A stretch of DNA of 4,218 nt from Escherichia phage Qbeta. The DNA lies in sequence record FJ483843.1. One strand, 5' to 3'. Both the position numbers and the translations under genes were made by a program. Numbering within the stretch: the first letter of the stretch is position 1; the number at the start of each line of letters is the position of its first letter. The notes under the pieces were generated by a model that did not search any database, was not told the origin of the DNA, and was given only the letters and a program-made list of their open reading frames with translations. Shown here piece after piece: positions 2,349-4,218 of this stretch.

Positions 2349-2368
2349 ATGCATGTCTAAGACAGCAT
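2349..2368 (+). promoter_or_regulatory. Coat-protein binding translational operator hairpin at the replicase start
   Basis: Seen in sequence: ATGC (2349-2352) pairs with GCAT (2365-2368); A2353 is bulged; TGTC (2354-2357) pairs with GACA (2361-2364); loop TAA (2358-2360). An 8-bp stem, one bulged A and a 3-nt loop is the described Qbeta operator architecture, and the replicase AUG (2353-2355) sits inside it. Confidence 0.85.
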
Positions 2369-4122
2369 CTTCGCATAACTCTCTTAGCGCACAATTGCGC
2401 CGAGCTGCGAACACAAGAATTGAGGTCGAAGGTAACCTCGCACTGTCCATTGCCAACGATTTAATGTTGGCATATGGTCAATCGCCATTTAGTTCCGAGT
2501 CTGAGTGTATTTCACTCAGCCCGAAATTCGACGGAACCCCGGATAACTTTAGGATAAATTATCTTAAAGCCGAGATCATGTCGAAGTATGACGATTTCAG
2601 CCTAGGTATCGATACCGAAGCTGCTGCATGGGAAAAGTTCCTAGCAGCAGAGGCTGAATGTGCTTTAACGAACGCTCGCCTCTATAGACCTAACTACAGT
2701 GAGGATTTCAATTTCTCACTGGGTGAGTCATGTCTTCACATGGCTCGCCGAAAAATAGTTAAGTTAATAGGAGACGCGCCGTCCGTTGAGGGTATGTTGC
2801 GCCATTGCCGGTTTTCTGGCGGTGCCACAACAACGAATAACCGTTCATACGGTCATCCGTCCTTCAAGTTTGCGCTTCCACAAGCGTGTACGCCTCGGGC
2901 TTTGAAATACGTTTTGGCTCTCAGAGCCTCAACACATTTCGATATCAGAGTTTCTGATATTAGCCCTTTTAATAAAGCAGTTACTGTACCAAAGAACAGT
3001 AAGACCGATCGCTGTATTGCTATCGAACCCGGTTGGAATATGTTTTTCCAATTAGGTATCGGTGGCATCCTACGCGATCGGTTGCGTTGCTGGGGTATCG
3101 ACCTGAATGATCAGACGATAAACCAGCGCCGCGCTCACGAAGGCTCCGTTACTAATGATTTAGCGACGGTTGATCTCTCAGCAGCAAGCGATTCTATATC
3201 TCTTGCTCTCTGCGAGCTCTTATTGCCTCCAGGTTGGTTTGAGGTCCTTATGGACCTCAGATCACCTAAGGGGCGATTGCCTGACGGTAGTGTCATTATC
3301 TACGAGAAGATTTCTTCCATGGGTAATGGTTACACATTCGAGCTTGAGTCGCTTATCTTCGCTTCTCTTGCTCGTTCCGTTTGTGAGATACTGAACTTAG
3401 ACTCATCTGAGGTCACTGTTTACGGAGATGACATTATTTTGCCATCCCGTGCAGTTCCTGCTCTTCAGGAAGTCTTTAAGTATGTTGGTTTTACTACCAA
3501 TACTAAGAAGACTTTTTCTGAGGGGCCGTTCAGAGAGTCGTGCGGTAAGCACTACTATTCTGGCGTAGATGTTACTCCCTTTTACATACGTCGCCGTATA
3601 GTGAGTCCTGCCGATTTAATATTGGTTTTGAATAACCTATATCGGTGGGCCACGATTGACGGCGTATGGGATCCTAGAGCACATTCCGTATACCTCAAGT
3701 ATCGTAAGCTGCTGCCTAAACAGCTGCAGCGTAATACTATACCTGATGGTTACGGTGATGGCGCTCTCGTCGGATCGGTCTTGATCAATCCCTTCGCGAA
3801 AAACCGCGGATGGATCCGGTATGTTCCGGTGATCATAGACCATACAAGGGACCGAGAACGCACCGAGTCGGGATCGTATCTCTACGATCTTTTCTCGCGC
3901 TATTTCTCGGAAAGTAACGATGGGTTGCCTCTAAGGGGTCCGTCGAGTTGCGATTCTATATATCCGCTCGCTATCGATCAGCTTATTTGTAAGAGTAATC
4001 CTACAAAAATAAGCAGATCTACTGGTAAGTTCGATATACAGTATATCGCGTGCAGTAGCCGTGTTCTGGCACCCTACGGGGTTTTCCAGGGCACGAAGGT
4101 TGCGTCTCTACACGAGGCGTAA
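2353..4122 (+). CDS. rep: RNA-dependent RNA polymerase (replicase beta subunit)
   Basis: 589-aa ORF from the ATG at 2353 (MSKTASSHNSLSAQLRRAANTRIEVEGNLALSIANDL...) to TAA at 4120-4122. YGDD catalytic motif at 3421-3432 (EVTVYGDDIILPS). Matches Qbeta replicase in length and sequence as recalled. Confidence 0.95.
   Translation: MSKTASSHNSLSAQLRRAANTRIEVEGNLALSIANDLMLAYGQSPFSSESECISLSPKFDGTPDNFRINYLKAEIMSKYDDFSLGIDTEAAAWEKFLAAEAECALTNARLYRPNYSEDFNFSLGESCLHMARRKIVKLIGDAPSVEGMLRHCRFSGGATTTNNRSYGHPSFKFALPQACTPRALKYVLALRASTHFDIRVSDISPFNKAVTVPKNSKTDRCIAIEPGWNMFFQLGIGGILRDRLRCWGIDLNDQTINQRRAHEGSVTNDLATVDLSAASDSISLALCELLLPPGWFEVLMDLRSPKGRLPDGSVIIYEKISSMGNGYTFELESLIFASLARSVCEILNLDSSEVTVYGDDIILPSRAVPALQEVFKYVGFTTNTKKTFSEGPFRESCGKHYYSGVDVTPFYIRRRIVSPADLILVLNNLYRWATIDGVWDPRAHSVYLKYRKLLPKQLQRNTIPDGYGDGALVGSVLINPFAKNRGWIRYVPVIIDHTRDRERTESGSYLYDLFSRYFSESNDGLPLRGPSSCDSIYPLAIDQLICKSNPTKISRSTGKFDIQYIACSSRVLAPYGVFQGTKVASLHEA
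2546..2868 (+). promoter_or_regulatory. Probable M-site (internal replicase binding site)
   Basis: Coordinates transferred from the published Qbeta M-site (about nt 2545-2867) with a +1 offset; not verified by folding. Confidence 0.35.
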
Positions 4123-4218
4123 CCTGGGAGGGCGCTATTATGGCGCCTGGTTGTGAATAAATTATCACAACTACTCTTACGAGTGAGAGAGGGATCTGCT
4201 TTGCCCTCTCTCCTCCCA
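4123..4218 (+). other. 3' untranslated region with three hairpins and CCCA terminus
   Basis: Hairpin 1: GGCGC (4131-4135) / GCGCC (4143-4147), loop TATTATG. Hairpin 2: TTGTGA (4151-4156) / TCACAA (4165-4170), loop ATAAATTA. Hairpin 3: see next feature. The genome ends ...CTCCCA, the CCA-type 3' end required for replicase initiation. Confidence 0.85.
4185..4212 (+). promoter_or_regulatory. 3'-terminal hairpin (replication element)
   Basis: Perfect 9-bp stem GAGAGAGGG (4185-4193) / CCCTCTCTC (4204-4212) with 10-nt loop ATCTGCTTTG (4194-4203), followed by the single-stranded tail CTCCCA (4213-4218). Confidence 0.8.

Follow-up and report, generated by a model that had tools for sequence, protein, structure and literature searches.

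Introduction

The loop of the 3'-terminal hairpin in a Qβ-type RNA phage genome is complementary, over eight nucleotides, to a site inside the replicase gene. The question is whether this complementarity is the long-range pseudoknot known from Qβ, whether the loop has another partner, or whether the match is a coincidence. The window analysed here is the whole stretch of 4218 nt (FJ483843.1), and it is the complete genome of a Qβ-type single-stranded RNA phage (Qubevirus durum). It aligns end to end with the genome of Qβ strain BR12 at 95.7% identity, and laboratory Qβ and other Qβ isolates show about 92% identity to it. The order of the four genes is the same as in the Qβ isolates: the A2 maturation protein, the coat protein with the A1 read-through, and the replicase.

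In Qβ, the loop of the 3'-terminal hairpin U1 is reported to pair with a sequence ~1200 nt upstream, and the pairing is described as essential for replication (Klovins & van Duin, 1999, as cited in PMC3561173). The Qβ literature places the partner near the replicase M-site, on its downstream side. In the model given in two further papers, a second long-range helix acts with the pseudoknot, and the 3' end comes close to the active site of the S1-docked replicase (PMC4176380; PMC4200798). A search with the Rfam 15 covariance models gave no match anywhere in the 4218-nt genome at E-values up to 1. A long-range pseudoknot is not something that these models capture.

Pairing of the two strands and their structural setting

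Direct reading of the DNA record gives TAAAGCAG at positions 2973-2980 and CTGCTTTG at positions 4196-4203. In RNA letters, UAAAGCAG (2973-2980) and CUGCUUUG (4196-4203) are antiparallel partners with the pairs U2973·G4203, A2974-U4202, A2975-U4201, A2976-U4200, G2977-C4199, C2978-G4198, A2979-U4197 and G2980-C4196. The duplex energy is -8.9 kcal/mol. After subtraction of the opening costs implied by the accessibility probabilities, a net energy of roughly -8 kcal/mol would remain. The elements of the genome that concern this helix are as follows.

2353-4122 (+), replicase beta-subunit gene, which holds the internal strand; start codon according to the annotation of the BR12 record
2546-2868 (+), approximate M-site, the internal binding region of replicase and ribosomal protein S1; literature coordinates only (PMC4176380)
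2941-2961 (+), local hairpin at the 5' border of the linker, in the minimum free energy (MFE) fold
2962-2980 (+), predicted single-stranded linker of 19 nt that holds the 5' strand, between two hairpins in the local MFE fold
2973-2980 (+), 5' strand of the pseudoknot, UAAAGCAG; unchanged in all 14 full genomes compared, and covarying with the loop
2973-2980 (+), codons of the replicase gene over this strand: Asn AAU (third base only), Lys AAA, Ala GCA, Val GUU (first base only)
2981-3003 (+), local hairpin at the 3' border of the linker (UUACUGU / ACAGUAA), in the MFE fold
4125-4130 (+), 5' strand of the helix closing the 3'-terminal domain, paired with the last six bases in the MFE fold
4185-4212 (+), 3'-terminal hairpin U1, with the stem 4185-4193/4204-4212 and the 10-nt loop 4194-4203
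4196-4203 (+), 3' strand of the pseudoknot, CUGCUUUG; part of the U1 loop, with the same letters in 13 of 14 genomes
4213-4218 (+), last six bases, CUCCCA, the starting point of minus-strand synthesis and the partner of 4125-4130 in the MFE fold

The M-site coordinates were transferred from Qβ 2545-2867 by adding 1 (PMC4176380). The last 99 nt of the genome fold at -47.8 kcal/mol (z = -7.3), and in this fold the strand 4196-4203 lies wholly within the U1 loop. The letters of the U1 stem differ between the group III and group IV phages, and the pairing is kept. The helix between 4125-4130 and the last six bases is called ld IX in the literature (PMC3561173). The 3' boundary of the internal strand is 1238 nt from the 3' end of the genome and 1216 nt from the loop strand. 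An earlier note on this genome had counted seven Watson-Crick pairs and one G-U pair, had placed the partner strand entirely in the loop of the 3'-terminal hairpin, and had put the internal site about 1.24 kb from the 3' end. The pair-by-pair reading, the 3' fold and the measured distance bear these statements out.

Accessibility, taken as the probability that an 8-mer is unpaired over its whole length, was calculated by local partition-function folding. It is 0.35 at 2973-2980 (the genome median for 8-mers is 0.003) and 0.46 at the loop strand 4196-4203. Both strands of the pseudoknot are predicted to be accessible. Burial of the internal site in a stable local helix, which the earlier note had named as an argument against the pairing, is not seen; the site lies in the predicted unpaired linker.

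Chance level and conservation among cultured genomes

The motif YAAAGCAG is expected 0.23 times per 4218-nt window when both strands are counted. The 4184 nt upstream of the hairpin were subjected to 300 dinucleotide shuffles, and 8-bp helices to the 10-nt loop with at least seven Watson-Crick pairs were counted. The mean is 0.65 per shuffle, and 47% of the shuffles contain at least one. The bare complementarity of 2973-2980 and 4196-4203 is by itself not beyond chance (P = 0.47), in agreement with the caution of the earlier note that a short match alone is statistically weak in 4.2 kb. The significance of the site 2973-2980 comes from its conservation, covariation and accessibility.

Conservation was examined in 14 full genomes, namely seven Qβ-like strains (including FJ483843.1), M11, MX1, SP, BR8, FI, NL95 and HB-P24. 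Every helix of at least 7 bp to each genome's own loop was projected onto the whole-genome alignment. The helix of 2973-2980 is the only 8-bp loop helix that recurs at the same alignment position in 13 of the 14 genomes, and it is present in both Qubevirus species. The loop (A/C)UCUGCUUUG is identical in the same number of genomes, the exception being HL4-9 with CUGCUUAG. On the internal side, AAU AAA GCA GU is identical in all 14 genomes, and the third positions of the flanking codons vary. The 11-nt run AAUAAAGCAGU (2971-2981) ties as the longest invariant stretch of the alignment, in which 36.5% of the columns are invariant.

The codons of the internal site were compared with the rest of the replicase gene. 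Of the 256 replicase positions at which a degenerate amino acid is conserved, 38 (15%) have the same codon in every genome. At the pseudoknot site, three such codons (Asn, Lys and Ala) follow one another directly, for which the probability is ~0.003 if codons are independent. Among the conserved Asn codons one of 11 is invariant, and among the conserved Ala codons one of 19; both are the codons of the pseudoknot site. To judge from this codon usage, the internal strand is under a nucleotide-level constraint beyond the protein requirement.

A 30-mer around the internal site is present in 69 phage records. Three mismatching records were inspected, and they differ at positions 2967, 2970 and 2983 only, with no difference in the octamer. 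KC137648 and KC137676 carry A2983G (Thr to Ala), KC137676 additionally carries T2967C, and GQ153928 carries T2970C. Two of the three records are clones taken from azacytidine-evolved populations; the third is a mutant isolate.

Some further observations were made in the same comparison. The other longest invariant runs of the 14-genome alignment are UGGGAUCCUAG at 3667-3677 and CUCGUCGGAU at 3766-3775 in the replicase gene, and UUGGGUCAAUU/GAUCAUGGC at 1329-1349, directly before the coat start. The runs at 3667-3677 and 3766-3775 may reflect further constraints at the RNA level. The local fold of 3640-3800 is not significant (z = -1.6). A second exact copy of UAAAGCAG is found in the maturation gene of M11 (566-573) and MX1 (565-572), and the other genomes are without it.

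In HL4-9 (FJ483841), CUGCUUAG takes the place of CUGCUUUG, corresponding to U4202A. The pair A2974-U4202 is broken in this genome with no compensation, and HL4-9 is nevertheless an isolated phage. Three readings of the substitution are conceivable: variation that the phage tolerates, an error in sequencing the extreme 3' end, or a sign that the loop has an alternative pairing.

Other complements of the U1 loop

Three sites in the genome form at least eight contiguous pairs with the loop: 1456-1464, 2973-2980 and 4011-4018. The site 1456-1464 forms nine pairs, three of them G·U, and in the 14-genome scan it is confined to group III. A further candidate, 1419-1425, is G·U-rich and is not kept in group IV. 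The probability of being unpaired is about 1e-4 for both 1457-1464 and 1419-1425. These two candidates were rejected because they are buried, G·U-rich and not conserved in group IV.

The site 4011-4018 (AAGCAGAU) requires more attention. It forms eight Watson-Crick pairs with 4194-4201 at -9.6 kcal/mol, slightly better than the long-range helix, and the result would be a local pseudoknot. The complement is present in seven of the seven Qβ-like genomes, and its variants (C to U and A to G) still pair as G·U. The loop variant of HL4-9 adds a ninth pair to this helix while it weakens the long-range helix. In the Qβ clade proper, the loop could be imagined to have two mutually exclusive partners, 2973-2980 and 4011-4018, with the RNA toggling between a tethered, replication-competent form and a locally closed form. 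If this were true, the closed form could serve, for example, translation or packaging, and a change of the HL4-9 type (U4202A) would shift the balance. We consider such a toggle very unlikely.

The simpler proposal, that 4011-4018 is the partner of the U1 loop or alternates with 2973-2980, is likewise very unlikely. According to the 14-genome scan, the helix is restricted to the seven Qβ-like strains; M11, MX1 and the group IV phages all lack the complement. The MFE fold places the site in a stable local stem (3976-4019), on the 3' arm, and the site is about five times less accessible than the long-range site (P = 0.067 versus 0.35). Its variants are third-position transitions, for which wobble pairing is preserved by default. 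Moreover, the partner in the literature is ~1200 nt upstream of the loop, whereas 4011-4018 is ~180 nt upstream. The site 4011-4018 was rated as an unlikely alternative because only the Qβ strains proper have it and because it is buried locally.

Covariation in uncultured lineages

Since both strands are invariant in the cultured strains, intermediate relatives were sought for covariation, the check that the earlier note had proposed. A protein search detected uncultured Qβ-like replicases at 48-73% identity, all adjoining coat and read-through genes. The series, represented by contigs for P0002-P0017, fills the gap between Qubevirus and the other genera. None of its members is in the phage collection, and tblastn with the intermediate replicases detected no cultured intermediates. 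In the contigs of the 12 intermediate replicase clusters, most sequences stop in the 5' arm of U1, and the loop was obtained from two lineages only, P0014 and P0015. Replicase searches of the IMG/VR and JGI metagenomes yielded no relative above 46% identity, and most of the relatives found had incomplete 3' ends. Degenerate-codon scans for variant internal sites returned only SP, FI, one Qβ fragment, or nothing.

In P0014 (49% replicase identity), U1 reads GGGGACAGG-UUUGCUUUG-CCUGUUCCCC, and the codons AAC AAA GCG ACU form the internal site. The site CAAAGCGA forms eight of eight pairs with UUGCUUUG in its own loop. Relative to the genome studied, G2980-C4196 is changed to A-U, A2979-U4197 to G·U, and U2973·G4203 to C-G. 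The loop was seen in two independent samples, L194 and L195, whose contigs are head-to-tail concatemers, so that the terminal hairpin, lost from the other assemblies, is preserved. At L194 3520-3560 and L195 1-90, the 3' end (...CCUGUUCCCCUCC) abuts the 5' end (GGGGUAGGGCCCC...) of another genome copy.

In P0015 (48% replicase identity), U1 reads GAGGAGGC-GUGUUGCUUA-GCCUCCUC, and the codons at the internal site are AAU AAA GCA ACA; the loop was seen in L198 and L199. Here eight Watson-Crick pairs join AAGCAACA and UGUUGCUU, with the register displaced by 2 nt. The pairs of 2973 and 2974 are lost, those of the equivalents of 2981 and 2982 are gained, and the pair at 2980/4196 is A-U. A genome-wide ranking of the complements of each lineage's own loop puts the homologous site first in P0014 and also in P0015.

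The alignment of the two strands comprises 16 sequences, 10 of them distinct. Paired cells amount to 97.5%; shifting the partner by 1-3 columns leaves no more than 47.5%. One pair shows a compensatory change (GC in seven rows, AU in three), and two pairs show a one-sided change compatible with wobble pairing. The observed covariation score is reached by six of 500 column shuffles. All 15 lineages have the core AAAGC unchanged, and the third position of the Ala codon is A or G only, both of which pair with U4197. An A at the equivalent of 2980 is found in the lineages P0005, P0008, P0012, P0013, P0016 and P0017, and a G in P0002, P0003 and P0006.

These comparisons indicate that natural compensatory change between the two strands occurs, as seen in P0014 and P0015. 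The change from G-C to A-U at 2980/4196 may be a single ancestral event shared by the two lineages. Since neither strand varies appreciably within the two cultured species, the covariation rests on two uncultured lineages. The earlier note had held that independent variation of the two segments would speak against the pairing; the changes found are matched, and the eight pairs are kept in 13 of the 14 cultured genomes.

The same data bear on the possibility that the complementarity is coincidental, with each segment conserved for unrelated reasons: the linker by the peptide N-K-A-V-T-V-P-K, or possibly by S1 or Hfq binding, and the loop by recognition by the maturation protein or the replicase. 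Such a coincidence would agree with the frequency of comparable matches in the shuffled genomes, with the strict conservation of the peptide around the internal site, and with the UGCUU loop core, which is kept in MS2, GA and AP205 without a complement at the homologous site. We regard it as very improbable, since protein conservation cannot explain three successive invariant synonymous positions where 15% of comparable codons are invariant, the loop changes of P0014 and P0015 are matched by an internal site that is the best complement in those genomes, the Ala third-position variants are confined to bases that pair with U4197, and published compensatory mutagenesis of Qβ is reported to show an essential role (as cited in PMC3561173).

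Relation to the Qβ pseudoknot

The pairing of 2973-2980 and 4196-4203 was compared with the pseudoknot described for Qβ in 1999. The virus species is the same, the 3'-terminal hairpin loop is the same, and the octamers are identical to those of laboratory Qβ (AB971354), where they are located at 2972-2979 and 4195-4202. The features of the known element are found here one after another. The genome is of the Qβ type with the A2, coat/read-through and replicase genes (92-96% identity and the layout of the open reading frames). The 3' strand is in the U1 loop (4196-4203 in 4194-4203). The 5' strand is 1216 nt upstream and is located downstream of the M-site; it lies ~105 nt past the approximate M-site end (M-site coordinates: PMC4176380). 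By prediction, it is single-stranded between structural domains, in a 19-nt linker whose accessibility is at the 99.3rd percentile of all 8-mers of the genome. The pairing is conserved or covarying: 13 of the 14 cultured genomes have 8 bp, two uncultured lineages compensate, and HL4-9 is the sole exception. The length of the helix equals that of the published Qβ pseudoknot, which we take to be 8 bp. The present isolate differs from the 1999 system in that it has diverged by ~8% from laboratory Qβ and by 4% from BR12, and the element is known here from sequence.

In the secondary literature searched, no nucleotide coordinates are given for the published pseudoknot, and matches to the sequence strings are from unrelated siRNA and primer papers only. 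Klovins and van Duin (J Mol Biol 294:875) are said to have described eight loop nucleotides and a single-stranded interdomain partner. The published nucleotides were matched by elimination and by this description. The helix of 2973-2980 and 4196-4203 is very probably the Qβ long-range pseudoknot and is, as such, already known. The suggestion of the earlier note that the essential Qβ pseudoknot is located at these sites is supported by the ~1200-nt spacing, the linker, the conservation and the covariation, with the published nucleotides assigned by elimination.

The companion long-distance helix of Qβ is in the same 3' half of the genome, but it is a separate helix without the U1 loop. It is cited together with the pseudoknot as required for minus-strand initiation (PMC4176380; PMC4200798). 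From the Qβ literature, the following course of events can be proposed. The replicase holoenzyme would dock on the M-site via ribosomal protein S1. Eight of the ten U1 loop nucleotides (4196-4203) would pair with the replicase-gene linker 2973-2980, and this pseudoknot and the second long-range helix would tether the otherwise sequestered 3' domain beside the docking site. The tethering would bring the 3'-terminal CCCA to the polymerase active site, and minus-strand synthesis could start. The replication requirement of the pseudoknot is an experimental result for Qβ and is cited as such; in the present genome, the sequence shows the pairing potential.

Other single-stranded RNA phages and HCV

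In MS2, GA, PRR1, M and AP205, no U1-loop complement is found at the homologous codons, directly upstream of the TVPK motif. This result indicates that the Qβ site belongs to the Qβ-like clade and is not shared by single-stranded RNA phages in general. The best candidates in MS2 and GA are at similar positions, ~135 nt further upstream. These U1-loop complements are CAAGCA at MS2 2211-2216 and CAAGCAA at GA 2199-2205, and they are 1.26-1.35 kb from the 3' end. They are candidates for an Emesvirus counterpart at a location that is not homologous to the Qβ site. The UGCUU core of the U1 loop is conserved beyond the Qβ-like clade (PMC3561173). Since it is conserved in genera without the complement, the U1 loop is under additional constraint.

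For phage M, a U1-loop pseudoknot between UUGCU and AGCAA ~1215 nt upstream was proposed (Rumnieks & Tars, 2012, PMC3561173). The pseudoknots proposed for other single-stranded RNA phages likewise join the loop to a replicase-gene site ~1.2 kb upstream, but they are putative and are located at codons that are not homologous to those of Qβ. An analogous arrangement is known outside the phages. In HCV, the element 5BSL3.2 in the NS5B coding region makes a kissing contact with a loop of the 3'X tail, and the contact is needed for genome replication. As in Qβ, a sequence of the polymerase gene pairs with a 3'-terminal hairpin loop and positions or remodels the 3' end. HCV is an unrelated virus, and its contact, which spans a much shorter distance and involves other host factors, joins two loops, whereas that of Qβ joins a loop to a linker.

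Biological implications

The element is textbook Qβ biology, and it accounts for how a replicase docked at a distance of over 1 kb is able to begin copying at a 3' end that is buried. Its recovery in a new isolate adds nothing conceptually, and it is a good check that the reading of a raw sequence finds a real long-range tertiary contact. The new material consists only of the natural compensatory evidence from the uncultured relatives and of a prediction for the lineages with missing 3' ends. Lineages at 48-49% replicase identity keep the contact by compensatory changes and a 2-nt register shift, and the phylogenetic support for it becomes wider. For the six lineages with missing 3' ends, the prediction is that the corresponding loop position would be U wherever the internal site has A at 2980.
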